Source: Candidatus Woesearchaeota archaeon
Lineage (GTDB): Archaea > Nanobdellota > Nanobdellia > Woesearchaeales > SKIA01
Length of the DNA stretch: 64,000 bases
Assembly (NCBI GenBank): GCA_043771635.1
Contig: JAYVHA010000019.1
Coordinates: forward strand, 1,248 to 65,247
Direction of reading: 5' to 3'
The number at the start of each line of letters is the position of its first letter. Within the stretch, counting starts at the first letter, position 1. Made by a program: the position numbers and the translations under genes. Positions 30,392-48,871 of the stretch are shown one piece after another. The notes below the pieces were generated by a model. The model was given only the letters and a program-made list of their open reading frames with translations. It did not search any database and was not told the DNA's origin.

Positions 30392-31369
30392 TTAAGGTAG
30401 TAAACGGAATCGTGTATTAAGTAATCCCCACTCAACAAACAGCAGAGCTATAGCAATCAACAGCATGGCGCTGGAGAGGTCTATTGGGACATATGCACTC
30501 TCACGCGCACCTATCACTTGCTCAAACGCCGCCTTTAATGTTACAGGATCATGCGCCCACGCATAGGTACCACCAGTGTTTGCTGCGATGGTGCGCAAAT
30601 TCTCTTCGTCATACATCACCACCTTTGCCTCTAGACCAGGCACAAACGAACCTAAACGCTCACTGCCCACTCCTATAGTGTGAATTACGACGCCGCGCTG
30701 ACGTGCATAACTAATTGCTTGCGGGATTGGATTGTCGTCATACAGTGAGAGTGCTGAAACTCCGTCAGTTAGAAGCACCATGGCGCGGCCGCTTCGTTTG
30801 TCTGCGAGTAGGTTCGTGCCCGTTACTATCGCAGCGGCAATGTCGCTTCCTCCAAGCGGCTTGAGCGCGACACTCGCGAGCGCTTTACGAACTAGAGCGT
30901 CGTCTGAAGTTGGCACCTGTAATACTTCGGGCAAACCAGAATATTGGATTAAGCCAACTTCCGTACGCGAATCAATTTGATCCAAAAACGTGCCCGCCGC
31001 TATACGTGCTGCCGCAAGGCGTGTACCATTCATGTCATTAATTGACATGCTTGCACTCGAGTCAATAAGAATAACAACATCGTTTTGAGCGCGCGTACCT
31101 ATGTGCCACAGAGTTGTGCCAGCGGCTGCAAAAATAAGTGAGACAATAATAATAAGGCGTAAAACAAGAAGCCCAAGATTTTTTGTAAGTAATCGCTTTC
31201 CTGTAACGCGCTCAATAGTAGTAAAATTTCCAAAAATTATTGCGCGATGCCGCGCGTGTCTCATAAAATACAAATGTGTAAAAATTAGAAGGGGAACTGC
31301 AAACAACAACCATAACGCCACCGGTTGCGCAATCGTAAAATAGAACGAAGCCATTATACTCGCCACCAA
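30392..31369 (-). CDS. BatA-like von Willebrand factor A domain membrane protein
   Basis: Two N-terminal TM helices, then a VWA domain with MIDAS DSSASMS ... LLTDG. Confidence 0.75.
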   Translation of the reverse strand: MVASIMASFYFTIAQPVALWLLFAVPLLIFTHLYFMRHARHRAIIFGNFTTIERVTGKRLLTKNLGLLVLRLIIIVSLIFAAAGTTLWHIGTRAQNDVVILIDSSASMSINDMNGTRLAAARIAAGTFLDQIDSRTEVGLIQYSGLPEVLQVPTSDDALVRKALASVALKPLGGSDIAAAIVTGTNLLADKRSGRAMVLLTDGVSALSLYDDNPIPQAISYARQRGVVIHTIGVGSERLGSFVPGLEAKVVMYDEENLRTIAANTGGTYAWAHDPVTLKAAFEQVIGARESAYVPIDLSSAMLLIAIALLFVEWGLLNTRFRLLP

Positions 31370-32253
31370 CGCCTTTTTCGCTGCACGAATGCTTGCCGCA
31401 CAATATCTTTGTATGGACTTGATGTTTCAAGCATAATTAAGTCTGCACCTGCCGAACGAACTAAAGCTGAAATACGCTCCTCCTCAGCAGCTACAAAAGC
31501 AGCATACGGCTGAGCGTAATCTGCAGCGTCAACAACGAGTTTTTGACCTGTAGTCGGATCTTCTAGTACGAATTCACCATGCGCCGGTAGACGCCTGTCT
31601 CGAGGGTCTCGCACAACTATCAATATTAAATCATGTTTAGTTGCCATGACTTTCAAATTATGTTCCCAAGCTGCATCGAAACCAACGGCATCCGTAATCA
31701 ACATAATAAGTCCTGGCGTTGGCATAACTGCAAGAAGCTGCCTGGTTGAATGAGCAATGTCTTTGACACCACCATAGTGCGCTATATCCAAAATTTGGCG
31801 TGTAATCTGGTGGTGATAAGCAACACCATTTCCAAGCGGCATAAACCGCGTTACGTGGTCGCTCCAAAGTGCTAAGGAAACGTTTTCTCCCATGTGAAGC
31901 GCCGCAAAGGCAAGTGAGCTCGCTACTTCCGCTGCATACTCAGACTTTACTTTATCAGTTGTGCCGCATAACATCGTGTCAGAGACATCGAGAAACATGT
32001 ATACGTTTAGATTCTTCTCTTCTTGTAGCTCTTTTATTACTAGGCGTCTACTTCGCAAACTAGCCTTCCAGTCAATAAGACTAGCATCGTCACCAGTAGT
32101 ATATTGACGATAACCTGCGAACTCTATTCCGTGTCCACGCATACGACTTATCCACTCACCTGAAATCATTGCGGAGAGCACTTGCTGCTTTGCTTCAATT
32201 TCAAGATCTCGAATCTTTGGCAGCAGGTCCGCACGAAATGAGCGCGGCTTCAT
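31354..32253 (-). CDS. DUF58 protein (MoxR-associated, VWA-like)
   Basis: The DUF58 signature YRQYTTGDDASLIDWKASLRS...FLDVSDTM. Confidence 0.75.
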   Translation of the reverse strand: MKPRSFRADLLPKIRDLEIEAKQQVLSAMISGEWISRMRGHGIEFAGYRQYTTGDDASLIDWKASLRSRRLVIKELQEEKNLNVYMFLDVSDTMLCGTTDKVKSEYAAEVASSLAFAALHMGENVSLALWSDHVTRFMPLGNGVAYHHQITRQILDIAHYGGVKDIAHSTRQLLAVMPTPGLIMLITDAVGFDAAWEHNLKVMATKHDLILIVVRDPRDRRLPAHGEFVLEDPTTGQKLVVDAADYAQPYAAFVAAEEERISALVRSAGADLIMLETSSPYKDIVRQAFVQRKRRWWRV

Positions 32254-32260
32254 TGTGTTT

Positions 32261-33370
32261 TCACCGCTCGGCGACTGGCACTTTGGCGAGAAGCTCGTCG
32301 ATGATTTGATCTGCGCTTACGCCTTCCGCCTGTCCTTCATAACTTAAAATTAGACGGTGACGAAGTACATCGTGCGCCTTTTGTTTTACGTCTTCAGGCG
32401 TAACATAAGTGCGGCCGGAAACTAGCGCACGAGCTTTAGCCGCAATAAATAAACTAATTGTGGAACGTGGGGAGCCTCCGTAAGCAATATACTTTGCCCG
32501 TGTGAGCTTATATTGATCAGGATGTCGCGTTGCATCAACAATTCGTACTATGTATCGCTCAACTTTAGGATCCAAATAAACGTTGCGTACATCCTGCTGA
32601 ATTGCAACTATCATACGCGGGTCCAAAATAGGTTTTAAGTCATAATCCTCAAAGCGACGCGTAGTCATATTCTTATGCATTACTTCAATTTCCTCCTCAG
32701 GAGGCAAGTAGCCCATTACTACTTTGAATAAAAAGCGGTCAACTTGCGCTTCAGGCAACGGGTAAGTACCAATATTTTCTACAGGGTTCTGTGTTGCCAT
32801 TACGAAAAAAGGTTGTGGAAGCGGGAATGTTTGGTTTCCAATAGTTACTTGCTTCTCCTGCATTGATTCAAGAAGTGCTGACTGAACCTTCGGCGGCGCA
32901 CGGTTTATTTCGTCAGCAAGTACGAAATTCGCAAAAATTGGACCTTTAATTGTGTAAAAGCCTTTACCTTCTTCGTACGTAGTAATACCAACGATGTCTG
33001 TCGGAAGAAGGTCAGGAGTAAACTGAATACGCTTGAAGTCACAACCCGTCACACGTGCAAGTGAGCGAACAGTAAGCGTTTTTGCAATGCCTGGCAAACC
33101 CTCGACAAGTACGTGTCCGTTTGCCACAAGGGCTTCAATAAGATTAGTTATAACTACTTGTTGCCCTACAATAATCTTGGAGAGTTCTTCACGTACAAGC
33201 GCAATGCGCTGCTGATACACAGCAACGCGCGCAATAAAAGCAGGGTCTTGAGCATTTATAGCTTCTTGACCTAAGGGGGTTAGTGGTAAACTCTGCGCAA
33301 TAGAAGTTACCAACGCACTTGCGGATACACTATTCTGCATTGAAGGCGGTAGTGCTGCGGTTGGTGACAC
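32261..33370 (-). CDS. moxR: MoxR-family AAA+ ATPase
   Basis: Walker A in GHVLVEGLPGIAKT, plus TPDLLPTDIVG. Confidence 0.9.
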   Translation of the reverse strand: MSPTAALPPSMQNSVSASALVTSIAQSLPLTPLGQEAINAQDPAFIARVAVYQQRIALVREELSKIIVGQQVVITNLIEALVANGHVLVEGLPGIAKTLTVRSLARVTGCDFKRIQFTPDLLPTDIVGITTYEEGKGFYTIKGPIFANFVLADEINRAPPKVQSALLESMQEKQVTIGNQTFPLPQPFFVMATQNPVENIGTYPLPEAQVDRFLFKVVMGYLPPEEEIEVMHKNMTTRRFEDYDLKPILDPRMIVAIQQDVRNVYLDPKVERYIVRIVDATRHPDQYKLTRAKYIAYGGSPRSTISLFIAAKARALVSGRTYVTPEDVKQKAHDVLRHRLILSYEGQAEGVSADQIIDELLAKVPVAER

Positions 33371-33485: not shown

Positions 33486-34064
33486 TTGTACATGAGTACC
33501 AGTGATCCTGTACGCGCACATCAAGATGCGATGCTAGCACTACAGCACGAGTTCGATCGTAAAATCACATATCACCGACAGAAAGCATATCATGATCCTG
33601 CCGAGATTTACTGGCTAGCGCACGAATTTCTTACAGCAATATTGCAGAGAGCGGAACGCCACCATACAGAAGAAGAACTTGGAGCTATGCTAACTCAACT
33701 TAAGCACGATTTTATTTCCCTGCCCCCCGAACTAATCGAAGCGTGGCGCATATTTCTAGGTCAGCTCGCATACGCCCAGTACGGTGGTTACACAACTGAA
33801 ACACGCCACGTACAACTGTTACTCGACCAATGCGCACTGCTAATTGAAGAAACCCTTCGCGAAGTAGTAACTGCGCCAGACGAACTTACCAAACAACTAC
33901 AAGCCCTGAAGGTGCTCGTGCATAATGGCGAACTAGGACGCGCCGAACACCAATACCGTACAATCATTCAAGCCTATGAACGTCTTCCGGATGAACGCAA
34001 GCAAGCACACTATCATAGAGTAGCTAGCGCGTTTCAGACTATATCCGCTGCACGTAGCGCATAA
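33486..34064 (+). CDS. Hypothetical helical protein
   Basis: 192 aa, His/Gln-rich, no motif. Divergent from the moxR operon. Confidence 0.3.
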   Translation: MYMSTSDPVRAHQDAMLALQHEFDRKITYHRQKAYHDPAEIYWLAHEFLTAILQRAERHHTEEELGAMLTQLKHDFISLPPELIEAWRIFLGQLAYAQYGGYTTETRHVQLLLDQCALLIEETLREVVTAPDELTKQLQALKVLVHNGELGRAEHQYRTIIQAYERLPDERKQAHYHRVASAFQTISAARSA

Positions 34065-34131: not shown

Positions 34132-37100
34132 TTATTTCTGCCTCGCATAAAATATTACTAGCGTTGCCCCGATAACAATTAGTGCAATTAGTAAACCACC
34201 AAGCGCCCAGTTTAGCGTACTCCAAGCTGCAAGTCCTTCAATTCCCGCAGGTTGTTGTAACTCCTGCCTACGTATAGTTTTTAGATACGCGCAGCCGTCA
34301 GTTGCAGCTTCTAGTAGCTCGGCAGCGCGCATATTGTCCCCACTAGCAATTGCGACTTCTGCTTGATCAACAAGTTCGGCAAGTTCTCCACACACAGGGT
34401 CTTGTGAGAGCAAGTCGCGAGCACTCGTAACTTTGGTGTTTACTGCGTCACCAGTGCTGGTGCGCTCTAAGCTGTTAAGAAATAATACAGCACTATCATT
34501 GAAACTCGGCTCTCCGACAACTGCAGTCACTATAATTTCAAATGTACCGCCGAGCTTATAATTCTTAATTGCGAGCGACGTGTTAAACGTCTCATCGGGC
34601 GCAAGCTCTTTTACAGTATTAGTAATAAACCCGAGTTCTACTTCAGCCTCAGATGTTGCAGTCAAGTCAATATCCTTAAGGGTCAAGTTTCCAGTATTCA
34701 CTAGTGCAATTGGAACGATAACAGTTGCATTTTCATACACTGTAAGCGGCTTCGGCACAATCAAGTTTATTGCGTATGGCTGGGGCCTTGGAATTGGCTT
34801 AATTACAACAGCACCGCCACCACCACCACCACCACCACCACCGCCAGAACTTGAACTCGAACTACTCGAGCTCTCCTCTTCTTCAGGATTATAGAAAATA
34901 GTGTAAGTAATAATATTGGAATAAAGACTGTAAGCACTATCCGCAGTAGTGGCGAGGTAAGTAAATGTAATACTGCCTGATGACGCAGGAGTTATTGTAA
35001 CGTCAGAGTCTACAAATGCTGCAGTAAAATATGCATTCGCTGATACAGAGTATACTAGCGTATTAATTTCGCTTCCATCAATAGCCAAGTTAGAGTCAAG
35101 ATCGTCATCAGGATCAATTATACTAAGTTCGTTGTTTAGTAGCGTAGTATCGTTAATTGTCCGGTTTCCGAGATTAGAAACGAGTATTGGGGCGCGTTTC
35201 ACGTTACGGACTGTGGTATTCCACATGAATGAATCATTAGCTAAAAGATTGTCTTCGACAACAGCCATTATTTCGTGTACACCTGCATCGAAGAAATCAA
35301 AACTTGCGGAATAGGCCGGGTTTGATGCAGATGGCGACGCAACAAGCATACCGTTCGAATAATATTTTACGGTCATGTTAGCAAGCACACTATCAGGATC
35401 TGTGAATGAAATATTGTAAACAACTGTAGTGTTTTCAGAGGCATTAATGAGCGTTATTGCGTTACTTGTAGTAACTATTGTGTTGTTTACTTGCGCCGAG
35501 CCATTGAGATAAGGACGAGCACCTGTAATAACAGGCGGAGCTGAACCGTTGACCACGGCGAACGTTACATTTTGACTCGTAAATGCTCCTAGCGCGTCCG
35601 TCACAGCGATATTAACTTCGTACGAGCCAATGTCTGCAAGTACAGGCGTAAATTGAATACGGCCTGTGTAAGCGTTTAATAGAGTAATATTGAAAAGGCC
35701 AGTATTTGGTCCAGCTATATCCGCTGTGAAGTTTATTGTGTCACCAATATTACGCTGATCAACATCAGTCATAATTACGTCCCAAGTTTTGCTTACATCT
35801 ATCACCACAGGCGCAGAAAGTGTAAGTACATTCGTGATATTGTCTCGGTTACTGTCAAAGAATGGCGCATCATTAGTATTGTTTACTTGAAGTGTGAAAA
35901 TCTGGGAATCACTAGCTCCCCATCGATCAGTTACAGTCAGTAGCAGAGAATAGTTCGATACCTCATTATTTGCATAGGTGTGATTCAACCTGCTAGTATT
36001 CACAGATAGCCAAGTTACATCAGCTAGCGAATCATTGAAAGAGAAAGTGAGATTTTCACCCGCATCATCATCAAGCGCCGCTAATTCGATCGTACAAGGC
36101 AGATCTTCTGCGCACGTCCTATTAGTTATCGGCACTAACACCGGCGCGGCGTTAGCATATACCGTAATGTTAAGTGTGCGCGTTACTGAAGCTAACGCGA
36201 TGTCTTGTGCAGTTATGCCGACTAATCGCCTCCCAACATCCCCAGCACCGGGTGTCGCCGTAATTAGGCCGCTGCTCGCTCCGACAGTGAATAGCGAATC
36301 ATTACTCGTGAAGGTTAGTGTATCACCCGCATAGGTTAGTTCGTCAACATCACTCGCATTTACAACATATGCGAATGCAATATCTTGCGCAGCACTTAAA
36401 GCACTAGCATTTTTTTGGCCTAAATAGTTCGGAGACTCAGCACTTATTTCAGCTATAATAGGGACATCGTTTGTGTTAGTAAGATTGAATGTTATATTAT
36501 AGCTAGTGGTGGAGCGGAAGACACCTGCTGCTGTATAGTCGGAGACAGAAAGCCTTACAGATCTACAAATGATATGATTATTCGTTAGAGTTACGTTTAT
36601 GATTCCGATAGCGCCAGTACTACTGTTCGAAGTAGTATTGACAGACCAAGGGTTCGTTATTGAGCAACCTGGACTGGCTACAGAAAAGAATAACTGATCC
36701 GCAGGATTAGTATCGTTTGCCAGTATAATATACTCGAATAAGGTACCTTGTGTACCATTTACTGCCGGAGTAGACGTGAATACAGAGGCATTGTTCGGCT
36801 CAGTAACTAGCACAGTAAATGTAGTAGTTGCATTCTTCATAGGGTTTGACGCTTGCCAAGCAACAATACTTACATTGTACAACCCAGCGTCGAGGCTAGT
36901 TGGATAACCTAGTGCGAAAGATACGTTCGCACTAAAATTACTCGTAGGCAACAGCGTTAAAGTTCCGTTTGATGTTATAGTGAAATTTAAAGGATCACTC
37001 TCTTCGTCTGAAGCAGTTATAGATAGACTGAAACCTTGTCCGGAAGTGACGTTTTGATTTCCAGGACTTATAATAATTGGAATGTCATCGAATTCAACGA

Positions 37101-37797
37101 CTTCATATACTATGTTCGAGCCACCATAAGTTTCACCATCAAACGCCAGAATCGCCATGGTGTGATTACCAACCTTACTTGCAGTAGGAGTTGCTGATAT
37201 ATCCCCATCATTGTCTATTGTAAATAATGAAGTGCCATTGTACAGGCTACTATTAAGATCACTTGATAAAAATAGCAGAATAGTGTCACCATCGGCGTCA
37301 GTTGCAGTAGCAGTAGCCGAATAAGTCTGGTCTTCAGTTAAAGACTGCAAGGTTGTAGGGAACGTAATTACGGGCGGAGAGTTAGAAATCAAGACTGCAG
37401 TGGCATTTTGCGCAACTGAAGCAGTAATATTAGACACTGTAGCCTCGCAGCGCCAATATTCACCTTTAGATGTACTTATAGGTTCTATTGAACCATTTAC
37501 TCCTGTGGCCGTTGCTACACCATTAGTGAGAGGCAGTGTTTCAGTGTCGCCAATCCAAAGTAAGTTATTCTGATACCACGAAATATTTGCAGTTAAGGTA
37601 CCATTTCCAGTTGCATTCACGATACAAGCCAATGTGCTGGCGGTGCCTGGCGAGGCAGGAGTAACACTTACGCTAACGATATTTAACGCGCGTACTTCTG
37701 GCATAAATAGCACAACACTTAGCGTAATTAAAAGTAAAGTTAACACAGTTTGCGAAGCAAAAGCTTCTCCGCTTGTACCAGTCTGCTTAGAAGTCAT
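34132..37797 (-). CDS. Giant (1221 aa) cell-surface glycoprotein with Ig-like/cadherin-like beta-sandwich repeats, a poly-Ser/Gly linker and a C-terminal TM anchor
   Basis: N-terminal signal/anchor. More than 50 N-x-S/T sequons. An S9G12 linker at 34800-34870. C-terminal hydrophobic helix followed by a basic tail (YARQK). Confidence 0.7.
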   Translation of the reverse strand: MTSKQTGTSGEAFASQTVLTLLLITLSVVLFMPEVRALNIVSVSVTPASPGTASTLACIVNATGNGTLTANISWYQNNLLWIGDTETLPLTNGVATATGVNGSIEPISTSKGEYWRCEATVSNITASVAQNATAVLISNSPPVITFPTTLQSLTEDQTYSATATATDADGDTILLFLSSDLNSSLYNGTSLFTIDNDGDISATPTASKVGNHTMAILAFDGETYGGSNIVYEVVEFDDIPIIISPGNQNVTSGQGFSLSITASDEESDPLNFTITSNGTLTLLPTSNFSANVSFALGYPTSLDAGLYNVSIVAWQASNPMKNATTTFTVLVTEPNNASVFTSTPAVNGTQGTLFEYIILANDTNPADQLFFSVASPGCSITNPWSVNTTSNSSTGAIGIINVTLTNNHIICRSVRLSVSDYTAAGVFRSTTSYNITFNLTNTNDVPIIAEISAESPNYLGQKNASALSAAQDIAFAYVVNASDVDELTYAGDTLTFTSNDSLFTVGASSGLITATPGAGDVGRRLVGITAQDIALASVTRTLNITVYANAAPVLVPITNRTCAEDLPCTIELAALDDDAGENLTFSFNDSLADVTWLSVNTSRLNHTYANNEVSNYSLLLTVTDRWGASDSQIFTLQVNNTNDAPFFDSNRDNITNVLTLSAPVVIDVSKTWDVIMTDVDQRNIGDTINFTADIAGPNTGLFNITLLNAYTGRIQFTPVLADIGSYEVNIAVTDALGAFTSQNVTFAVVNGSAPPVITGARPYLNGSAQVNNTIVTTSNAITLINASENTTVVYNISFTDPDSVLANMTVKYYSNGMLVASPSASNPAYSASFDFFDAGVHEIMAVVEDNLLANDSFMWNTTVRNVKRAPILVSNLGNRTINDTTLLNNELSIIDPDDDLDSNLAIDGSEINTLVYSVSANAYFTAAFVDSDVTITPASSGSITFTYLATTADSAYSLYSNIITYTIFYNPEEEESSSSSSSSSGGGGGGGGGGGAVVIKPIPRPQPYAINLIVPKPLTVYENATVIVPIALVNTGNLTLKDIDLTATSEAEVELGFITNTVKELAPDETFNTSLAIKNYKLGGTFEIIVTAVVGEPSFNDSAVLFLNSLERTSTGDAVNTKVTSARDLLSQDPVCGELAELVDQAEVAIASGDNMRAAELLEAATDGCAYLKTIRRQELQQPAGIEGLAAWSTLNWALGGLLIALIVIGATLVIFYARQK

Positions 37798-38259: not shown

Positions 38260-40434
38260 CTAAGGTTTCTTACTGCCTAGGCCAAGTCTAAGCTCATCAT
38301 AAACACGTGCAAGGTCATCATAAATTTCGCGCTGCTCCGCTAAAGTTGCTTTTGCGTACCATGATTCAAGCACTTGATAGAGCGCTTGGGCGAGCTCCTC
38401 TTTGTTGAACTGGATTGCGAGGTGCAATTGGTTAAGAAGCAAATAACCACGATCAAGCGCAGGAGTCTCTGCAGGAATGTCGCGTAGTTGCAAGTCCTGG
38501 TCTCGAGCACGTAAATCATCAACTGTGAGCACCGCTGTTTGATATACTAGTTCTCGCGTTTCTTGAATTAGAGAACGCAGTACAAGTTCATTCACTGGCA
38601 CGCCCGCAAATTCTAGAACATTTATACGGATAAAGAACTTTCGAAGTATCCGGGCTAAAAGCGGGTTCAAGCGATTAACATTTACCGCTTTAACTAATTC
38701 TTCATTTGTGAACTCGAACTCGAGTCCGAGTGACGCTTTGAAGTAGTCACGTATAATTCGCGCAAGCTCTTCTTGACTACGAATAATAGTCTGCGTACCG
38801 AGCCGCGCCTCTAACTCTGCAAGGCGACGAATAATTTCCTCCTTTGTTGCTGCAGCTAGCAGTATCTTTCTGTTGGTTCGTTGATGGCGTAGTAAAAATG
38901 CCATCAGAGCGCTTGCAATCTGACGTTTGAGAATTATTGCGAGTAAGAAAGCAACGGCTAGCGCTATTCCGCCGATGAGTAGCGCAGTAAACCAAGGGAA
39001 ACCTGCCGCAGGGAACTGCTCTTCAACGCAAGCCGCACAGAAAAGTCCACCGCAATCAATTTGCTCTTCCCCACCATTTCTTATTCCGTCGGAACAACTT
39101 GTACAAGGAGCGCAATCAGGCCCTCCACAGTCAAGCCCTTTTTCTTCACCATCCATTTTTCTGTTTGAACAAGTGTTGCACTGCTCGCAGAACGGACCGC
39201 CACAATCCACACCTTCTTCAAAACCATTTTGGATACCATCAGTGCACAATGTACAAGCAGAGCATACTGCGCCACCGCAGTCAACACCCGTTTCATCTTG
39301 ATTCAGTATACCGTCTGCACAGTTAGGCACGTACCCGCATGGGCGAACTTCCGTGCGCGTAACAGAGCCAGGACACTGCTTAGTATCAATACAAGAGCGC
39401 CAGGAAAAGCCCGCACGGTACTCATCAATACTAGGCGACGCACCAGGTGCAGGAGTGTATAATATATCCCCCCGCACACCTGTAATCACTATGTTTGCTG
39501 GATTTGCAGGCGAAACTCGAACGCTGCGCGCTACTTGACAAGCGCTCCAATCATAACAGAAGTAGTTCTCAAAACAAACAGGGTTTGTTGAAGTGCGTGA
39601 GGCGCCACCACCGCCACCAGCTCCACCACCACCGCCTCCACCACCGCCGCTTGAGGACGAGCTAGAGGAACCACCAGAACTGCCTGACGACGGCGGCGGA
39701 CAAGTTACGTTTAACTTTACAGTATTACTTATTGCACTTAGATTAGTCGGATCTGTTGCATTGAATACAACGCTTTCTACACCGCACCAACCGGACGCAG
39801 GTGTAAGCGTTACTTCTCCAGCAGTGAAAGCAATACCAATATTAGAATTACCAGTCACAGAGTATGCTAAAATATCAGCATTCGGATCAATAAAATAATT
39901 ATCGAGATCAAACGCTACAAGCACAGTTCCATACTGCCAGGTTTGATTTGGAATATTTTGTGCGAGAAACGGAGTATTCAAATTTTGGGAAATGGTGAAT
40001 GTATTCAAGTTTGTAGTTATAGCGTTTGTACAGCCCGAACCATCGTCCACAGTAAGTAAAAGAGTGTAAGTGCCAATCTGAGATGAATTTGGCGTAAACG
40101 CAAATGTATGAGTTGAGCTGGAGAATAACGCGAGTCCCGTAGCTGGACCGGATAGCGCAGCAGATGAGAAAGCAAAACTTACTTGGACTGGATCAGAGGC
40201 AGTCATTGTGCATGAGTAAGGAGTATCCACATAGGCGTTCATAGTACAAGAAGATAGGTTTAGCGTCGGCGGCGTGTTTACACAAATAGTCAATTGCCCA
40301 TTAGATGTAACTCTACCAGTAGTAGACGCATCACGTACTAGGATATACGCATTCTGCGCCAAGACTAGAACAACAAGAATAAGGAATGCAATCCACAAAT
40401 ACTTTGGATGCTTACGCACGGAGCACCACCTCAC
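38260..40434 (-). CDS. Single-pass surface protein. From N- to C-terminus: glycosylated ectodomain, poly-Ser/Gly linker, 4 Cys-rich 25-aa repeats, TM helix, ~230-aa cytoplasmic helical tail.
   Basis: Signal peptide. Linker SSGGSSSSSSSGGGGGGGGGAGGGGG. Repeat consensus C-x-DG-x2-N-x2-E-x-G-x-DCGG-x2-C-x2-C, four copies. TM segment FPWFTALLIGGIALAVAFLLAIIL. Confidence 0.65.
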   Translation of the reverse strand: MRWCSVRKHPKYLWIAFLILVVLVLAQNAYILVRDASTTGRVTSNGQLTICVNTPPTLNLSSCTMNAYVDTPYSCTMTASDPVQVSFAFSSAALSGPATGLALFSSSTHTFAFTPNSSQIGTYTLLLTVDDGSGCTNAITTNLNTFTISQNLNTPFLAQNIPNQTWQYGTVLVAFDLDNYFIDPNADILAYSVTGNSNIGIAFTAGEVTLTPASGWCGVESVVFNATDPTNLSAISNTVKLNVTCPPPSSGSSGGSSSSSSSGGGGGGGGGAGGGGGASRTSTNPVCFENYFCYDWSACQVARSVRVSPANPANIVITGVRGDILYTPAPGASPSIDEYRAGFSWRSCIDTKQCPGSVTRTEVRPCGYVPNCADGILNQDETGVDCGGAVCSACTLCTDGIQNGFEEGVDCGGPFCEQCNTCSNRKMDGEEKGLDCGGPDCAPCTSCSDGIRNGGEEQIDCGGLFCAACVEEQFPAAGFPWFTALLIGGIALAVAFLLAIILKRQIASALMAFLLRHQRTNRKILLAAATKEEIIRRLAELEARLGTQTIIRSQEELARIIRDYFKASLGLEFEFTNEELVKAVNVNRLNPLLARILRKFFIRINVLEFAGVPVNELVLRSLIQETRELVYQTAVLTVDDLRARDQDLQLRDIPAETPALDRGYLLLNQLHLAIQFNKEELAQALYQVLESWYAKATLAEQREIYDDLARVYDELRLGLGSKKP

Positions 40435-40852
40435 GTGTAAAGTCTACATCCCAATGCCCGAGAAACGCCAAAGCATCAAGTTCACGATCCATCGGCACAA
40501 AAAATGCAGGTCTACCCAGCTTTTGTCCACCCCATTCGGGCAACAAACCTATGCGACCTTGCACTCCCATTAACGCGTGGCTAAACACCTTCTTCCGACC
40601 AGGGTTCAAACGAGCAAGTAAATAAGTGATTAGCGACCAGCTCCCGACCCCAGCCATTTTTCTGTATGATTGCCCATATCGATGCGAGTAGCCCCGCTCT
40701 AAAAACTCTCGCACGCGCGTATGAAGCTGTGATGCAGGCAGACTAATGCAACCTGGCACCCGCGTGGCACCCGCAGTAATAGCGAAATGAGTCTCACCAA
40801 CAGTAACTATGTCGATGACGTCAACCTGCTTCAGTAAACCACTGAATTGCAC
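40412..40852 (-). CDS. Hypothetical protein with Cys...His-x-Asp residues, possibly a papain-fold/transglutaminase-like cysteine peptidase
   Basis: ORF of 146 aa with a conserved-looking VPGCISLP and C-terminal GHWDVDF. The assignment is speculative. Confidence 0.25.
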   Translation of the reverse strand: MQFSGLLKQVDVIDIVTVGETHFAITAGATRVPGCISLPASQLHTRVREFLERGYSHRYGQSYRKMAGVGSWSLITYLLARLNPGRKKVFSHALMGVQGRIGLLPEWGGQKLGRPAFFVPMDRELDALAFLGHWDVDFTREVVLRA

Positions 40853-40983: not shown

Positions 40984-41418
40984 TCATTTATTAGGCGAAT
41001 AAGGCACTACATACAAAGTACCCTGGTAAGTGCCAAGCGGAGCATCGAGCGACGGACGCAAACTAATGTTTACCTCAGCAGGTAAAGTAGTAATACTGGG
41101 CTGTATTATGATCCACTCACTTCCTTTACCTCTTGCTAACACAAGTACTTGACGCTTGGCTTGCGCTTCTTGCGTCATGCTGCCAATGCCCGCCTCGACT
41201 TGCAAAGTACGCCAAGAGGCTCCTCCAGGACCTAGCTGACCAAGCCTAAATACATCTTTTCTAGTATCGACACCTGGTACGTCCGCAATTACAAATAGAT
41301 AGGGTATAGACTGAGTTCCGTCAGGAAATTTTTCATTACTTGCAGTCAAGATATACACGGAGGCAGCACTTATAGCACCAACAAAAAGAACTAGAAAAAT
41401 AACAGAGATCAAACGCAT
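40984..41418 (-). CDS. Small secreted protein
   Basis: N-terminal signal peptide (MRLISVIFLVLFVGAISAAS), 144 aa. Confidence 0.4.
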   Translation of the reverse strand: MRLISVIFLVLFVGAISAASVYILTASNEKFPDGTQSIPYLFVIADVPGVDTRKDVFRLGQLGPGGASWRTLQVEAGIGSMTQEAQAKRQVLVLARGKGSEWIIIQPSITTLPAEVNISLRPSLDAPLGTYQGTLYVVPYSPNK

Positions 41419-41422
41419 AATA

Positions 41423-42841
41423 TCATTTCCTCGTGCTTTGGGGACTTGGCTGTGGTGGCGCCCGAGGACTGTCAGGAATTACAGCGTTTGGCGCAGGCGA
41501 GGCAGACTTAGTAGTTTCAGTGTCTGAACCTGGACCCCCGCCTTCATCTTTGCGCCTATGGTAGCGCGAGATTGCAAACAAGATTACCGACGCAACTAGA
41601 ATTATTGCGATTATACCAACAATCAAGTCAGCAGCTGAGAGTTCAACTACAGAGTCCGCTCCAGCAGGAGCTTCATAAGTTGGCGGCTTAGGCGTTTCAT
41701 TAAACACAGCAATCGGCAACAACGCAGTTTTAGAGCCGCCAGGGAAATAAACTGTAACCGTTGCTAATGCCTGCCCTGGCAGTATAGAACGATCAGTTTC
41801 CCAGAAATTAGTCATAGCGCCAGGTTGAAACGGGTCAATAGCAATTGAAGGTGTCGTACTTGGAGTTGCTCCGAGAACTACAGTAGAGTAAACATTATCA
41901 AGACGTTGATTCCACAAACTCTCCACGTGCACAGTGTAGCGGTTTACAGGCTTATCCAAATAGAGCGGTCCTTCTAGTGCAACAATATCTACATCTTGAG
42001 TGCCTACTGCAAACGAACCATTTGATTCGGCAATAAGATTGTTGTATTCTAGTTTCGCCTGCAACTGATATTTACCTGGCGAATACCCGCTTGATGGAAT
42101 TAATTTGGTGAAATCCTTATTACTACTTCCCGCTATTTCCATCCCATCAAAAGTAAACACATCTTGTAACTCTCCTGCAGCACTTACAATGCGAACTGTT
42201 GCCCGCCCAGAAGTAATAGCCTCTGCACCAAGATTATTTACAAGTAATTTTAGCTGAGTATTCTGTCCTTGAGGAACACTAGGCGCACCAGCAGTAAGCT
42301 CAGCATATTGACCAGGGTATGGTTTCCAAAGAATTATTCTATACCCAACTTCAGTTCTAACTGCGAATGTACCGCCAGTGTCGTCCGGAGCACGTTCTGC
42401 AAAAAATACAAAAGTTGTATGAAAACCAGGAGTTGCAAGTTCTGCAGGGGCTACAAATGCTAACGGAACTGACGCGGTACCACGAGCAGGAATTCGAATA
42501 GGTTGCTTTACCGCAACGGAATTTTTTAATACACCTTCAACACGAACATCAACATCTACAGGCCCATCATTATTGTTAATTAGAGTAACAGTTAAGTCAC
42601 TGCGCTGATTAGGTTCAAAAGTAACATCGACGCGAGGGGGACTCACACCCATAGCCAGTACAGTAGGAAGCGAAGCGATCATGCTCAAAAGCAGCAAAGA
42701 ATAAACTAAGACCTTTGACGAGCTAACCAATTTTGTATTCGCTCTTGTCATGTTTGAAAAAAGCACATCATCGTTTAAAACGGTATTCTTATTACTATTA
42801 GGTTTAGCAATAAATAATAAATTTCTTGGAAGTAGGCTCAC
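41423..42841 (-). CDS. Surface protein with beta-sandwich (CARDB/DUF11-like) repeats and a C-terminal TM anchor with a ~50-aa cytoplasmic tail
   Basis: Signal peptide (likely start at the Met near 42751). C-terminal IVGIIAIILVASVILFAI followed by RYHRRKDEGGG. Confidence 0.5.
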   Translation of the reverse strand: MSLLPRNLLFIAKPNSNKNTVLNDDVLFSNMTRANTKLVSSSKVLVYSLLLLSMIASLPTVLAMGVSPPRVDVTFEPNQRSDLTVTLINNNDGPVDVDVRVEGVLKNSVAVKQPIRIPARGTASVPLAFVAPAELATPGFHTTFVFFAERAPDDTGGTFAVRTEVGYRIILWKPYPGQYAELTAGAPSVPQGQNTQLKLLVNNLGAEAITSGRATVRIVSAAGELQDVFTFDGMEIAGSSNKDFTKLIPSSGYSPGKYQLQAKLEYNNLIAESNGSFAVGTQDVDIVALEGPLYLDKPVNRYTVHVESLWNQRLDNVYSTVVLGATPSTTPSIAIDPFQPGAMTNFWETDRSILPGQALATVTVYFPGGSKTALLPIAVFNETPKPPTYEAPAGADSVVELSAADLIVGIIAIILVASVILFAISRYHRRKDEGGGPGSDTETTKSASPAPNAVIPDSPRAPPQPSPQSTRK

Positions 42842-42853
42842 TTCTCACTCACC

Positions 42854-43462
42854 TTAGATTGCAGAGAAGGTGAGAGTTGAGATGCCAGTGCAACCACCAG
42901 AGAAGCCTACAGCGTCTTGCGGTATAGTTACATTAACATACAACTGAAATGCTCCGGAAGTTGGCACGATTTGCGGACAAGCAAGGCGAGTTGTGCTGTC
43001 TAAGGTAGTCCACGAACTTACGTTTGTACCGTTGCAGCTAGTCGTTATGAACTGAAGTGTAGGGTTTGTGCCACCGATTAAGGTCGCAGCACTGCAACTG
43101 CTTGTTACGTTTACGGACGCGTTAACATTGCCTACATTTTGTACTCTAATAAACCGAGGCGTTACGTTATCACCAGTGCAATTCGCGCCAAACACTCCGT
43201 CACATGCAACTGCATCGTTTGTTGCACAAGTATAATTTGTACCTGATCTAGGAGTACAAGTTCCGAATGCAAGAGTCTTGTTTCCAGCATCTACTTGAAT
43301 GTTAAGTGCACTTGCAACAGTAAGTGACACGTTACCCGTGTCTGTTGTTGCGCGACCTGTAAGACCAGGCAATGCGTCGATACGGATTAAAAAAGATGCG
43401 GAAACTACTAAGAGTGCACCAATTACTAACATTGCTAATGCACTGTTTGAAAGTTCGCTCAT
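42854..43462 (-). CDS. Pilin-like or adhesin-like secreted glycoprotein, paralog 1
   Basis: N-terminal hydrophobic anchor MSELSNSALAMLVIGALLVV. Many NxS/T sequons. About 76% identical (151/199 aligned positions) to the adjacent paralog. Confidence 0.5.
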   Translation of the reverse strand: MSELSNSALAMLVIGALLVVSASFLIRIDALPGLTGRATTDTGNVSLTVASALNIQVDAGNKTLAFGTCTPRSGTNYTCATNDAVACDGVFGANCTGDNVTPRFIRVQNVGNVNASVNVTSSCSAATLIGGTNPTLQFITTSCNGTNVSSWTTLDSTTRLACPQIVPTSGAFQLYVNVTIPQDAVGFSGGCTGISTLTFSAI

Positions 43463-43483: not shown

Positions 43484-44101
43484 CTATATTGCTGTGAAGG
43501 TTAACGTTGACGTTCCTGTACAACCACCCGAGGAGCCTACTGCGTCCTGCGGGATTGTAACGTTCGAAAATAGTCTGAATGCTCCAGAAGTCGGCGCAAT
43601 TCTTGCACAAGCAAGAGTGGTTGTTGTACCTAGCGTAGTCCAAGTTGTAACGTTGGTCGCATTGCATTCAGTAGTCTGGAATTGAAGTTGAGGATTAGTT
43701 CCGCCAATTAAGGTTGCTGCAGTACAGGAGCTTGTTACGTTGACTGAGGCGTTGACGTTACCGACATTAACTACGCGGATGAATCGAATGCTTCCATTAT
43801 CACCAGTGCAGTTTGCACCAAACACTGCGTCACATGCAACTGCATCGTTTGAGGCGCAAGTATAGTTAGAGCCTGCACGAGGAGTACAAGTACCAAAGGC
43901 GATAGTGCTGTTACCTGGGTCTACTTGGATGTTAAGTGCGCTTGCGATAGACAACGAAACGTTTCCAGTATCAGAAGTTGCCCTCCCGGTAAGTCCGAAT
44001 GTTGTTCCATCACTATTGATAGTATACACCGTTGTGCCAACAGTAACAACCAGAGCGGCAAAAACGAGAAGTGCGAGAGTACTATTGGAAATTTCTGCCA
44101 T
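43484..44101 (-). CDS. Pilin-like or adhesin-like secreted glycoprotein, paralog 2
   Basis: MAEISNSTLALLVFAALVVTV anchor. Conserved GLTGRAT(S/T)DTGNVSL and CTPR(A/S)G(S/T)NYTCA(S/T)NDAVACD blocks. Confidence 0.5.
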   Translation of the reverse strand: MAEISNSTLALLVFAALVVTVGTTVYTINSDGTTFGLTGRATSDTGNVSLSIASALNIQVDPGNSTIAFGTCTPRAGSNYTCASNDAVACDAVFGANCTGDNGSIRFIRVVNVGNVNASVNVTSSCTAATLIGGTNPQLQFQTTECNATNVTTWTTLGTTTTLACARIAPTSGAFRLFSNVTIPQDAVGSSGGCTGTSTLTFTAI

Positions 44102-44829: not shown

Positions 44830-46047
44830 TTAATTCCTATCCTTGCGAGTGTAGAATCGGTATATAAAATATGCTGCTAATATAGTAAGTAGAATTACCA
44901 GCACAATAGTAAATGCTCTGTTTGATGTAGCGCCTGGTTGAACCTCTACTGGACGTTCAATCGAATCTACACCTAGAATGATAGGGCGGGTTTCTTCTGA
45001 TACTTTATCTGCATAAATTAGCTTGGCTCTTAAAACCGCAGGACCAGCAGTAGCGCTTTTTGTCTCTAGAAACCCTGTAAAACGACCCTCGGCTAGAGGC
45101 ATAATTGTTTGTGAGGCGGAAGTTGCAGTACCTATAGTACTATTCTGCTCTAAAATAAACATAGCCTGTACTGGCAGCGGCGCACCCCACTCGTTTAATA
45201 CATCCACAGAAACGCGAAATGGATCACCCAGTCTAAATTCACCAAAATTAATTCCTAGTATTTTAACATTAAGCGCACCAACAATAATTTCGCTTGTTAC
45301 GCGTAGTTCTGTGGAACCATACGGAACTGACGCGACCGCAGTATACACACCAACAGCGCGAGGATTCCAAGATGCAACTAGATCGCGACTTTCACCTGGT
45401 AAAATTGTTACTTGAGCAAATTCCTGTCGTACCCCATCAAGCAAGATGGAAGATTGGGTGCTAATTGATTGAGTACCAACATTAAGTAAGTGTAGCGTGA
45501 TTAGTACTTCGCTCCCAACTATCCCGCTTGAACTCAGGAGCTCTCCAGTCAGAAACGCACCTTCTTTCGCTGTTTGAACTCGGATAACGTGCATAACCGC
45601 AGATGAAGCAGCCACTGTACCTGCACCAACTGCGCGCGACTCGAATAAAATGCCCGACTCGGAAGTACCAGGCACCGTGTTAGCAGGCAGACGTATTTGC
45701 ACTGGAATTGCACGTGATTCACCGGGCGAAATAACTACTGAAGGGGGCACATCAAGAGCGCCGCCAATAGCTAAAGCGCCTGTCGGCGAAATAGTAATTT
45801 CGAGAGCAGACGACTCATCGTTTCTGACTAATACATCATAGCGTACGACTTCGTTTGCACTGAAAGCTATTGTTTTACTTGCAGGACTTGCTGTGAGGGC
45901 AGACGCTGCACTAAGTGAACTTACAACCAAGATAACTAATAACATAACTAACTTAGCTCGAGAATTGGAATAATTCATTCTAAACTCGCTCCTAGAACAG
46001 TCAAGGTAGTATTTTTTGCACCTTGAGTCTCGCCTTGTGGAACCCAT
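44830..46047 (-). CDS. Surface protein with a beta-sandwich domain and a C-terminal TM anchor. The likely start is the Met near 45978.
   Basis: Signal peptide MNYSNSRAKLVMLLVILVVSSLSAASA. C-terminal FTIVLVILLTILAAYFIY followed by RFYTRKDRN. Confidence 0.5.
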   Translation of the reverse strand: MGSTRRDSRCKKYYLDCSRSEFRMNYSNSRAKLVMLLVILVVSSLSAASALTASPASKTIAFSANEVVRYDVLVRNDESSALEITISPTGALAIGGALDVPPSVVISPGESRAIPVQIRLPANTVPGTSESGILFESRAVGAGTVAASSAVMHVIRVQTAKEGAFLTGELLSSSGIVGSEVLITLHLLNVGTQSISTQSSILLDGVRQEFAQVTILPGESRDLVASWNPRAVGVYTAVASVPYGSTELRVTSEIIVGALNVKILGINFGEFRLGDPFRVSVDVLNEWGAPLPVQAMFILEQNSTIGTATSASQTIMPLAEGRFTGFLETKSATAGPAVLRAKLIYADKVSEETRPIILGVDSIERPVEVQPGATSNRAFTIVLVILLTILAAYFIYRFYTRKDRN

Positions 46048-47198
46048 ACTTTAAGTTCGAATTCGCGAAGCGCTCCGAGCGTTAGGTTACTTGTCAAACT
46101 AGTGTATCCGCTGGTTACGTTTATCCACGCGCTGCTATTTTCATCAGCATACTGGAAATAACTCGTGCTAAGGGCTTGGCTCACCCATAATGCAGCGTTT
46201 GCTTTGGCAGACGTAAGTACATCAACATTACCCGAGTTATTGTATACAAGAGGAGCAGGCGAGCTCGATAAAGTATCATTAGTACGGTTGGCTGTTGGGT
46301 CACTCGGAACAAGCGAGCCGAAATCAGTTGCGCCAGTGGTAAAGGTTATTCCAACGACACTTGGTATGCTAAAGTTAAATTGCGTTGCGTACGCACTGCA
46401 AGTATTACTTGTGTCGCAAGCGCGCACAGTCCAATTATACGCGCGGTCAACGCACAACTTGTCAATGCTCAAGTAGTATGCGGAACTACTGTTCTTTAGT
46501 GGAATAGCTGCGCATCCGCTTGGACTAGTAATATTCCACTGGTAAGTTACCGCATCACCATCAGGATCAGAGACATTTGTCCAGTTGAACGTCGGATAAC
46601 GTGATGAAACTGTGTAGTTATTATTTAGCGGGATTAGGAGCGTTGGTACTGACGGAGCGCTGTTTGATACGCTACCGCACACCTTTCGCGTGTACGCGTC
46701 ACAATCTCCAATATGGGCGTTTGTACTGTTACTGCCTTCAGCAGTGTTCGCGAGCGAGAGCATGCAACCGTATCCTGTCGAGCAAGCCGTATTGTTATAC
46801 TGAATCGACACAGTAGCTAGAGCTGCGGAAAAACACATACTAGTATTGTAGGTACTTTCGTTTGCTTGTTGTGCATGTGCATTGTCAGTGTCGGCAAGGC
46901 GCAGCCAAGTAGTCGCCGCGCCACCGCACGAAGTATTAAACGCACTTACTGCTACTGTAGTTGAATTGCAACATAAACTGTTCGCATATGTACCAACAGA
47001 AACATTTTGTCCGTGCGAATTATTCCATCCGCCAGTATCATTCGCCACACCTAGAAGTTTAATGGTGCTTGCACCACAAGAGCTACTCGCTACAAAGCTG
47101 CAGTTCAAATAACCGAGCGCGCTCGGTACGCTAGACAACAACAGCAAGGTTGCTACAACAAGTATACCTATCGGCCACATGCTAGCGGCAGAGTTCAT
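45975..47198 (-). CDS. Secreted Cys-rich, heavily N-glycosylated protein with a PTFNWTNVSDPDGDAVTYQW Ig/FN3-like repeat
   Basis: Signal peptide MWPIGILVVATLLLLSSVPSALG. About 40 NxS/T sequons. Many Cys residues. Confidence 0.5.
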   Translation of the reverse strand: MNSAASMWPIGILVVATLLLLSSVPSALGYLNCSFVASSSCGASTIKLLGVANDTGGWNNSHGQNVSVGTYANSLCCNSTTVAVSAFNTSCGGAATTWLRLADTDNAHAQQANESTYNTSMCFSAALATVSIQYNNTACSTGYGCMLSLANTAEGSNSTNAHIGDCDAYTRKVCGSVSNSAPSVPTLLIPLNNNYTVSSRYPTFNWTNVSDPDGDAVTYQWNITSPSGCAAIPLKNSSSAYYLSIDKLCVDRAYNWTVRACDTSNTCSAYATQFNFSIPSVVGITFTTGATDFGSLVPSDPTANRTNDTLSSSPAPLVYNNSGNVDVLTSAKANAALWVSQALSTSYFQYADENSSAWINVTSGYTSLTSNLTLGALREFELKVWVPQGETQGAKNTTLTVLGASLE

Positions 47199-48871
47199 TG
47201 CAGCGTTGCTCCACTAAGGAAACTGCCGGCAAGAAGTACGTCTCCTACTTGCGTTATTACGGCAGCATCAGTACCAGCTGCCGTGCGTATAACAAAGTCT
47301 CCACTTGTAGTTCGCTGCGGCGTTGTTCGCGCAGTTAACTTTCCTGCTGAGCGAAGTGCACCTTGTTCGTCGATTGATAGTGTGACAATTCCAGCACCGT
47401 CTTTTATGAGCCAGCCGCTCACTCCAGGTGTCGTACTAAATGTAGCGGCGCCGGTAACAACCATGGTCCCATATTTGTCAATTGCAGCTGCTGCACTGCC
47501 GTCTGCAGCTTCCACAACAAAGCGCCCACGACCACTGCGCAATAGCCACGCTGCACCTTGAGTGCCAGCTATGCATACACTATCAGTATATTCTGCGCCT
47601 GGCTGGTAAACAGTGCCATCTGCGACGCAGGCTGCTTGTGACGCAGCGCAGATTCCTCCTGTTAGTTCACCGTGGTACTGGCTTGTTAGACAAACGCCAC
47701 TTCCACACTGCGATCCTAAAGTACATGCCGCGCCGAGCGCAACTGTAACGCCAGGAATTACTTCCGGAGTATCTGGAACAGGAGCGGGTACAACTGGAAT
47801 TACAACAGGGGGCGCAACAGGCGGCACCGCAGTTATGGTAGTATTATTTGATTCATTTGTGCTATTAGTTGTTGCAACAATAGGAGGCGCAGGTGTAACG
47901 GGTGGCGTCACAACTGGTGGAGTCGTTACTGGATCAACTATTTCGTTGCTTGATGAATTAGTCTCGTTCGATGAATTAGTCTCAGTTGTTTCATTTTCAA
48001 GAGCGTGAGAAATTGGTTCTCCCCGCGTGCCGTATACAACGCGTTCAATGTAGAACTCTACAGCACCGCTCAGTTCAATATCTAGCGCCGCGCTTGCATT
48101 GAGCCCGGGCAGAGAGCAGGTTTCGACGCAAGCATTTAGAAATGCCACAGACTCGTCAGATTGCGCATTCGGCGCAGTTTCTGTGACTTCAGGAGTGTCA
48201 GTTTGTGGCGACGCAGGCAATGTTACTGCTCCAGGTTCACTTGGAGACAGCGTTTCAATTACAGTATCATCAGTAGTCACTCTTCCAGTTAGTCCGCTTG
48301 CACCCTCTTTCTCACTGTCGTATGATGCCACGAGCAACCGAGCATCCCCTAAACGCAAATATACTTTCGCCACCCCATCTCCGCTTGCAGTACCGTCGAT
48401 TCGCAACGACGAGAGAGGATCAGTAATTGAAAGTGGAACCGTTTCACTGCCAGTATAAACGCTGTCAAGTGGCAGCGCATAGAACGATTCATCTTGGCCA
48501 AAAGTGAACAAACCCGTTATAGCTCCAAAGTTTAATGCGATTAAAGCAGCAAACACAATTACAATTGCAAAAGGTACTGCTTTTCGGAGTCTAGGGTGTG
48601 ACGGCGGCTGCGCAGCAAGCATTGCCTCAGTACTTGCAAGATGCTCGTTCAAATCACGGATGACGTCTTTAGGATCTTTACCCGCGTACTCCCGCGCAAC
48701 GATCTGCTTCGCCATTTCAGGCGTTAATTTACCAGACGCTACTTCGCGATCAATTTCAGCTGTAAATTCGTTTACTGCGTCACGCTCTTTCTCGAACTTC
48801 TCGATAAGTTTTTCGAGTTCAGCTCTCATAAGCGCACCACTTTCTTTATAGCACGTTGATACGTGGTCCAA
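47195..48871 (-). CDS. Type II membrane protein: ~95-aa cytoplasmic coiled-coil N-terminus, one TM helix, Pro/Val/Thr-rich stalk, Cys/Gly-rich C-terminal ectodomain
   Basis: TM segment AVPFAIVIVFAALIALNFGAITGLF. The stalk has PPVVTPPVTPAPPIV...PPVAPPVVIPVVPAPVPDTPEV. 4-nt overlap with the downstream gene. Confidence 0.5.
   Translation of the reverse strand: MDHVSTCYKESGALMRAELEKLIEKFEKERDAVNEFTAEIDREVASGKLTPEMAKQIVAREYAGKDPKDVIRDLNEHLASTEAMLAAQPPSHPRLRKAVPFAIVIVFAALIALNFGAITGLFTFGQDESFYALPLDSVYTGSETVPLSITDPLSSLRIDGTASGDGVAKVYLRLGDARLLVASYDSEKEGASGLTGRVTTDDTVIETLSPSEPGAVTLPASPQTDTPEVTETAPNAQSDESVAFLNACVETCSLPGLNASAALDIELSGAVEFYIERVVYGTRGEPISHALENETTETNSSNETNSSSNEIVDPVTTPPVVTPPVTPAPPIVATTNSTNESNNTTITAVPPVAPPVVIPVVPAPVPDTPEVIPGVTVALGAACTLGSQCGSGVCLTSQYHGELTGGICAASQAACVADGTVYQPGAEYTDSVCIAGTQGAAWLLRSGRGRFVVEAADGSAAAAIDKYGTMVVTGAATFSTTPGVSGWLIKDGAGIVTLSIDEQGALRSAGKLTARTTPQRTTSGDFVIRTAAGTDAAVITQVGDVLLAGSFLSGATLQ

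Follow-up and report, generated by a model that had tools for sequence, protein, structure and literature searches.

A 64,000-nucleotide stretch of DNA (the window; part of contig JAYVHA010000019.1 of a Candidatus Woesearchaeota archaeon) encodes, at positions 38260–40434 of the (−) strand, an adhesin-like protein that crosses the membrane once and belongs to an archaeon of the DPANN group (Woesearchaeota-like); the ectodomain faces outwards and the C-terminus lies in the cytoplasm. The open reading frame (ORF) is 724 amino acids (aa) long when read from GTG 40434. Little is known of the molecules by which DPANN archaea make and control their contact with the cells to which they live attached. 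The analysis establishes the architecture and topology of the protein and defines two modules that are not catalogued: a conserved cytoplasmic domain family, confidently modelled and with no Pfam, PDB or BFVD counterpart, that occurs in membrane-tethered and free forms, and a widespread Cys-rich repeat of Bacteroidota and DPANN (the DCGG repeat) that no curated database names. The gene lies in a conserved cluster of about ten surface-protein genes tied to a MoxR–DUF58–VWA module, and the same cluster contains a free copy of the tail domain.

Membrane-tethered and soluble forms of the tail domain

A hydropathy scan revealed only two strong hydrophobic segments in the protein, at aa 13–34 and aa 481–503. 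The former (40333–40398; this and all other features of the gene lie on the (−) strand) has R/K before it and is a signal peptide or signal anchor. The latter (38926–38994) is the transmembrane (TM) helix, which AlphaFold2 models as a helix of aa 480–521 and which is followed by KRQ...RHQRTNRK. These segments agree with an earlier note on this DNA, which had described a surface protein with a single TM helix. The 15 residues that precede this helix contain no Lys or Arg, whereas the 22 that follow it contain five. The ectodomain contains 29 Cys and six N-x-S/T sequons, the tail none of either. Among 49 full-length family members the densities per 100 aa in ectodomain versus tail are 4.99 versus 0.25 for Cys and 2.85 versus 0.35 for sequons. 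The distributions of charge, Cys and sequons together support the cytoplasmic location predicted for the tail, and the TM prediction on which that location depended holds.

The tail itself (aa 504–724, 221 aa; 38263–38925) is the family-defining all-alpha domain, delimited by profile, AlphaFold2 model and topology. An AlphaFold2 model of aa 474–724, computed with a 38-sequence alignment, reached a mean predicted local distance difference test score (pLDDT) of 91.8 and a predicted template modelling score (pTM) of 0.83. Its helices, about 10 in all, comprise one of ~42 residues that continues from the membrane and a compact bundle of nine more, in line with the helical tail proposed from the sequence beforehand.

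The exact sequence of the window protein was not on record in the public assemblies consulted, and a word-indexed search returned only four relatives, at 60–78% identity. One of them (P0002) shows the same layout of DCGG repeats, TM helix and tail; P0001 and P0003 resembled stand-alone tails. P0003 at least is a gene-calling truncation, since the Cys module, four DCGG units and a TM helix are found in the upstream frame of locus L001. An exhaustive HMMER search with a tail profile built from the window protein and three homologues yielded 112 cluster representatives at E ≤ 1e-3, 38 of them at E ≤ 1e-10, and retrieved P0125–P0232 with the TM-plus-tail layout. The family is recognized by a C-terminal all-alpha domain of ~210 aa, 20–30 aa past a TM helix, with the motif EFT(Y/N)EEL. 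The window protein has all three features and scores E 4e-82 against a 38-sequence tail profile that includes the protein itself. In nearly all full-length members (580–1200 aa) the domain is C-terminal and begins about 20–30 residues after the TM helix. The upstream parts of the members consist of an N-terminal anchor, Ig-like (immunoglobulin-like) domains, one or two Cys modules and zero to four DCGG units; in P0131 and P0140 an alpha/beta-hydrolase ectodomain (Abhydrolase_6/DUF7379) takes the place of the Ig domains. Because the ectodomains vary to this extent, the TM helix plus tail is the constant part of the family, with the tail carrying differing extracellular 'cargo'. Between the window protein and five full-length homologues the tail is 28 to 58% identical; R562, E608, E625, T633 and Y686 are near-invariant, and EFT(Y/N)EEL is the hallmark motif. 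The earlier note had considered such a tail unusual for an archaeal surface protein; it is not the oddity of one protein and is instead the defining conserved module of a whole family.

A scan of the GTDB species genomes with patterns from close relatives found no relatives; scanning them with an alignment of the EFTYEE group gave 26 loci. Most of the named loci belong to Candidatus Woesearchaeota or Nanoarchaeota metagenome-assembled genomes (MAGs), and one NCBI member is labelled Nanoarchaeota. Eleven of the 26 are titled 'Methanosarcinales' ('uncultured Methanosarcinales archaeon', binchicken assemblies) and one (L023) 'Alphaproteobacteria bacterium'; the MAGs so titled are probably mislabelled or contaminated bins.

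The only other match to the tail profile in the window is a TM-less protein of 192 aa encoded on the (+) strand between the giant Ig gene described below and moxR (33486–34064). This soluble paralogue was detected by hmmsearch with an E-value of about 1e-10 among 16 cluster ORFs and 3e-9 among all 461 ORFs of the window. In 17 related loci this position is likewise taken by a TM-less protein with the tail domain; these proteins are 157–758 aa long, and the longer ones repeat their C-terminal subdomain up to four times; TPR models match this repeated subdomain only below threshold. A ten-sequence alignment of soluble proteins matched the tail alignment in hhalign with 99.6% probability (E 3.6e-24 over 186 columns), and the two groups share the EFTYEEL motif.

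The DCGG repeat and the rest of the ectodomain

The four juxtamembrane units of four Cys each that the earlier note had pointed out were recovered by a regular-expression search, which found exactly four tandem units before the TM helix, at aa 372–394, 397–419, 422–444 and 447–469, with a period of 25 residues and the motif C-x-DG-x2-N-x2-E-x3-DCGG-x2-C-x2-C. The whole block spans aa 372–471 (39022–39321), with unit boundaries at 39247–39321, 39172–39246, 39097–39171 and 39022–39096, and its last repeat ends 10 residues from the TM helix. None of 20,000 shuffles of the protein gave a single match to the unit motif, so the repeat is not a chance pattern. The units are 40–60% identical to one another at the protein level. 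No tandem repeat was found at the DNA level in this stretch, so the duplication of the units is old. The divergent third unit (CSNRKMDG...) finds its best match in the third unit of the L001 orthologue, and the third unit ties for best in P0125; the array is therefore old and largely conserved position by position. The block is also the most evenly conserved part of the protein in comparison with the five full-length homologues (50–62% identity). AlphaFold2 models it with a pLDDT of 80–86 and one small beta-bridge per unit.

The window protein is not alone in carrying the repeat. A search with aa 285–482, of the kind that the earlier note had advised for related genomes, found it in 660 proteins at E ≤ 1e-3, with matches that cover only the repeat half of the query. 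It is thus a widespread module without a name in curated databases. A DCGG repeat protein is defined here by tandem C-x-[DN]-G-x2-[ND]-x2-E-x3-DCGG-x(1-2)-C-x2-C units, of which the window protein has four; the consensus from 346 units reads C-[TYS]-D-G-[IL]-x-N-[GNQ]-x-E-x-G-[IV]-D-C-G-G-x2-C-x-[PA]-C. Most DCGG proteins are ~320 aa long with 4–7 units (P0005–P0124), and the named carriers are Flavobacteriales or other Bacteroidota, plus one Nanobdellota. These small Bacteroidota proteins share the same repeat with the window protein, with 45–60% identity over the repeat block. They differ from it in having the repeats after an N-terminal signal peptide and before unrelated C-terminal domains (DUF6252, Fib_succ_major), and in lacking the TM-plus-tail module. 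This placement would suit a spacer of generic use outside the cell.

Disulfide pairing and Ca2+ binding by the units may be guessed from the conserved C, D, N and E positions. A Ca2+ site built from D3, N7, E10 and D14 would be plausible by analogy with thrombospondin type 3 or LDL-receptor class A (LDL-A) repeats. The units resemble thrombospondin type 3, LDL-receptor class A, the disintegrin N-terminal loop and the Myxococcus Cys-rich repeat (TIGR02232/DUF4215) in being short and, putatively, disulfide-rich with conserved D/N/E beside Cys, and in their tandem use as extracellular spacers. In contrast to these Ca2+-binding Cys-rich repeats, they carry a signature of their own, DCGG-x2-C-x2-C with four Cys in 23 residues, and gave no profile or fold match to them.

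It is extremely improbable that the units are ordinary members of a known Cys-rich class, be it TNFR, EGF, furin-like, dockerin, disintegrin, thrombospondin type 3 or Myxococcus Cys-rich. The motif might speak for such membership, since it resembles the Ca2+-binding DG-x2-D-x2-D of thrombospondin type 3 and the CGNG-x2-E-x-GEECD of disintegrin/Myxococcus repeats. However, the 102-aa repeat region on its own matched no family of Pfam or NCBIfam at E ≤ 10, a 58-sequence repeat profile run against all PDB sequences found no Cys-rich protein, and Foldseek of the ectodomain model against the PDB found no match; membership in each of the classes named was rejected on these grounds. Most of 120 repeat proteins are also listed without a precomputed Pfam domain, and the remainder carry other, non-repeat families. 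A search of the literature on the DCGG motif and on DPANN Cys-rich surface proteins produced nothing relevant. The statement in the earlier note that the module could be assigned to no known repeat family has therefore held up.

The part of the ectodomain farther from the membrane carries two Ig-like domains. Pfam Big_9 (PF17963) matched the protein in two stretches (E 9.8e-10; 39.6 bits versus a cut-off of 23.6), as did the NCBIfam tandem-95 repeat, and weaker matches were obtained with Cadherin_5, PKD and He_PIG. Domain 1 (Big_9/cadherin-like) covers aa 53–144 (40003–40278). Domain 2, at about aa 150–245 (39700–39987), corresponds to the second Big_9 stretch and has a Big_9 match at the equivalent place in P0125; it is 45–51% identical to four of the five homologues compared and 29% identical to P0128. 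A low-complexity Ser/Gly linker follows (aa 248–278; 39601–39693), which is the gene's only DNA tandem repeat. Between the linker and the DCGG block lies the Cys module (aa 285–371; 39322–39582), with the pattern C-x5-C-x5-C ... C-x5-C ... C. Its counterpart in the relatives reads C-x2-W-x-C-x2-W-x2-C...R-x-C-x-D-x-N-x-C; in the window protein the module is split by a ~45-aa insert. AlphaFold2 gives it a pLDDT of about 50–78.

A conserved gene cluster and the possible role of the tail

Comparison of the window neighbours with the related loci by tblastn and blastp showed that these loci share one gene order, which is also that of the window, where all cluster genes except the soluble paralogue lie on the (−) strand. 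At the start of the cluster are two tandem paralogous genes for Cys-rich, N-anchored proteins of 205 and 202 aa (43484–44101 and 42854–43462); relatives of the 202-aa protein recur at the cluster start in 14 related loci, and neither protein has a Pfam match. Next come a conserved CARDB-domain membrane protein of 472 aa (41423–42841), a small signal-bearing ORF (40984–41418), a small conserved ORF (40412–40852) and the gene for the protein described above. Directly downstream of the latter, in the window and in 23 of 23 loci with room for it, stands the gene for a giant Ig/PKD surface protein of 1221 aa (34132–37797), which has a poly-Ser/poly-Gly linker of the same kind and a C-terminal TM helix with almost no tail. 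The best-conserved part of this giant protein is its membrane-proximal region (aa 912–1187; 33–36% identity across loci), which ends with the TM helix and ~6 cytoplasmic residues. Beyond the soluble paralogue the cluster adjoins genes for a MoxR AAA+ ATPase (AAA_3; 32261–33370), a DUF58 protein (31354–32253) and a BatA-type TM-VWA protein (BatA_N+VWA; 30392–31369), all recognized by Pfam. This MoxR–DUF58–VWA module adjoins the cluster in 14 loci.

In archaea, operons are known in which genes for a MoxR/COG0714 ATPase and a vWA protein stand together with those for Ig-like membrane, secreted or S-layer proteins (PMC5898192, PMC4858521). Makarova, Galperin and Koonin (2015) predicted that the arCOG01314 system is a secretion or membrane-remodelling complex (PMC5898192), and MoxR/vWA pairs have been predicted to assemble or regulate surface complexes and noted as likely modulators of surface structures (PMC5898192, PMC4858521). 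The window has in common with the arCOG01314 system the MoxR ATPase, the vWA protein and several Ig-like surface proteins. It differs in that no DUF4350/arCOG01314-type protein was found among the cluster ORFs scanned, and the TM-plus-tail family, the soluble paralogue and the DCGG repeat lie outside the description of that system. The module likewise has MoxR, DUF58 and BatA_N+VWA in the canonical order of Bat-type operons (Bacteroides aerotolerance BatA-E; Borrelia BB0170-0176), and the bacterial MoxR–DUF58–VWA examples compared have the same core. In contrast to Bat-type operons, the window has one VWA gene only, and its module is found together with Ig/CARDB surface proteins and the tail family; the part of the cluster that was examined showed no BatB-E, no TPR protein and no DUF4381 gene. 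The kind of protein is a known one, since Ig-type surface proteins encoded in MoxR/vWA-linked clusters have been described in archaea, and what is new in the window protein are two modules that no curated resource describes. In outline it is also like eukaryotic single-pass adhesion receptors with adaptor-binding cytoplasmic tails (cadherins, integrin beta subunits), which have an Ig/cadherin-like ectodomain, a Cys-rich membrane-proximal stalk, one TM helix, a cytoplasmic domain (here putatively) binding soluble partners, and a second large subunit at the surface. The likeness is one of analogy, as neither sequence nor fold relates the two.

We consider the chances about even that the protein is an adhesin-like stalked membrane protein whose tail docks cytoplasmic partners, in a surface complex coupled to an AAA+ chaperone. 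The two Ig/cadherin-like domains, on their flexible Ser/Gly linker, would bind a ligand or host surface, and the Cys module and four DCGG repeats would form a rigid, disulfide-stapled and possibly Ca2+-binding stalk that holds these domains off the membrane. The protein would work in a pair with the tail-less giant Ig/PKD protein encoded next door. The tail would act as a docking domain for the co-encoded soluble paralogue of the same fold and would bind the MoxR/DUF58 machinery either through the paralogue or directly. In this way a cytoplasmic AAA+ chaperone would be coupled to a surface adhesion complex, either to its assembly or to its activity. Gene context makes plausible the intracellular partner that the earlier note had invoked, as the conserved cluster includes genes for both a TM-less tail paralogue and a MoxR AAA+ ATPase; the tail may serve in transmembrane signalling or anchoring, as proposed there. 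A more specific version appears doubtful to us, namely that the tethered tail and the soluble paralogue make up an undescribed DPANN transmembrane coupling device linking a MoxR AAA+/DUF58/VWA machine, located in or at the membrane, to a two-subunit Ig-type adhesin on the cell surface. If true, it would mean ATP-driven assembly or 'inside-out' control of the host-attachment apparatus of an episymbiont, and the tail fold and the DCGG repeat of the stalk would be two new domain families that serve in it. The cluster provides a concrete candidate client for MoxR/VWA systems, whose substrates are mostly unknown.

Several points weigh against the docking reading. That the Ig domains bind a host cell, or any ligand at all, is an assumption made from the type of domain, and the putative link of the tail to the paralogue and to MoxR is drawn from gene context. 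No similarity of the tail to a domain of known function was detected, and the matches of its model in Foldseek against the PDB and BFVD all have E ≥ 1 and template modelling scores below 0.5. In two loci, L007 and L028, which contain the target-family gene and the giant Ig gene, neither MoxR nor the paralogue occurs within 6 kilobases or more downstream, so coupling to these genes is not obligatory. Such loci would suit a structural anchor, in which the tail is a sub-membrane scaffold (by homo-oligomerization or by lipid or cytoskeleton binding) that fixes an S-layer-like or adhesin array without any MoxR link. The near-absence of a tail from the giant Ig partner would make sense if one subunit per pair did the anchoring, and the modelled long helix leading from the membrane into a compact bundle is also in keeping with this idea. 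Nevertheless, we judge it rather unlikely, as most loci whose flanks are long enough have MoxR–DUF58–VWA and the soluble paralogue close by, and the near-invariant polar residues of the tail suggest a specific binding or catalytic site. The tethered and free versions of one domain in the same cluster could alternatively reflect an outside-in receptor, with contact of the Ig domains and stalk with a ligand or host changing the tail, which would hold or release the soluble paralogue as an effector; the logic would be akin to that of a membrane-tethered anti-sigma factor and its partner. The repetition of the C-terminal subdomain in the longer soluble paralogues is as expected of an interaction module, and the soluble gene and moxR are transcribed divergently. 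However, no DNA-binding, kinase, cyclase or other output domain was detected in the tail or the paralogue and nothing separates signalling from static docking, so that we hold this possibility, too, to be improbable.

The near-invariant polar residues, five in number, would also be compatible with a tail that is an enzyme or a chaperone-type domain so far not recognised as such, perhaps of the J or HEPN type, and that acts on cytoplasmic substrates. Tail positions 173–227 gave weak profile matches to DnaJ J-domain helices (E 0.011 to 2.8), and the best partial Foldseek overlaps of the tail were with HEPN-type and TPR-type helical proteins, all with template modelling scores below 0.5, the HEPN-type ones reaching up to 0.49 on the target over ~118 columns. 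The J-domain candidate was rejected: its best PDB profile match (E 0.011) concerns helix III only, and HLAIQFNKEE stands where the HPD tripeptide is expected, between helices II and III. HEPN fared no better, as the family has no conserved His or R-x4-6-H and Foldseek gave probabilities ≤0.28 with E ≥ 3.5. All structural matches have E ≥ 1 and probability <0.3, and a Pfam scan of 38 plus 7 tails was empty. We thus regard an enzyme or chaperone-type tail as very unlikely.

Other candidates for the tail were considered as well. TPR was rejected, with sub-gathering matches in two soluble paralogues (E 7e-4 to 4e-3) and TPR_7 at E 0.18 in one tail. DUF4381, in the bacterial examples a single-TM helical protein between DUF58 and BatA, showed no detectable homology to the tail (hhalign probability 1.7% over 16 columns, a weak test given a thin four-sequence DUF4381 profile). 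A resemblance to DUF4129, a helical domain of TgpA-type proteins in MoxR–DUF58 operons, found no support: PF13559 (DUF4129) was absent among the matches listed for the window tail, the 38 tails and 7 diverse tails (E ≤ 5). Plasmid records of Tsukamurella, Nonomuraea and Cupriavidus contain MoxR–DUF58–VWA operons without DUF4129. The isolated tail and the isolated Cys module matched no family in Pfam and NCBIfam scans at E ≤ 10, and phmmer of the whole protein against PDB sequences detected only Gly/Ser linkers.

Start site, neighbouring genes and other observations

A second GTG at 40419 (residue 6) is preceded by the Shine-Dalgarno-like sequence GAGGTGGT, and P0125, the closest full-length homologue, begins at the equivalent of residue 6. 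Because of GAGGTGGT and the start of P0125, the true start is probably GTG 40419, with a product of 719 aa. The 146-aa ORF upstream (40412–40852, (−)) has no family match and overlaps the start of the gene. The overlap amounts to 23 nucleotides (40412–40434) with the GTG 40434 start, and GTG 40419 overlaps the upstream stop by 8 nucleotides, which suggests translational coupling. In relatives (L012–L021) this small protein is about 187 aa long. It has the motif LLTYDLKTLxHSxKxLFGYALKGRxGxxGFL...GRNNVLIP, which may be akin to Cas2/PaaX-C-like folds.

Upstream of the cluster, at 44830–48871 on the (−) strand, are three large ORFs of 405, 407 and 558 aa that have no Pfam match at E ≤ 0.001 and a weak Ig-like match to FixG_C. 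One of them has a relative at the edge of L016, and the three may belong to the same surface-protein region. An Rfam scan of the window found only four tRNAs. The window also encodes the A and B subunits of an archaeal A-type ATP synthase, GatD/GatE, CDC48 and an archaeal Hel308-type helicase, genes that mark it as archaeal. At 18147–19367 on the (+) strand lies a gene for a fused MsrB/MsrA methionine sulfoxide reductase with an N-terminal extension of ~100 aa, and adjoining it, at 19651–20790, one for a flavin adenine dinucleotide (FAD)-dependent disulfide oxidoreductase.

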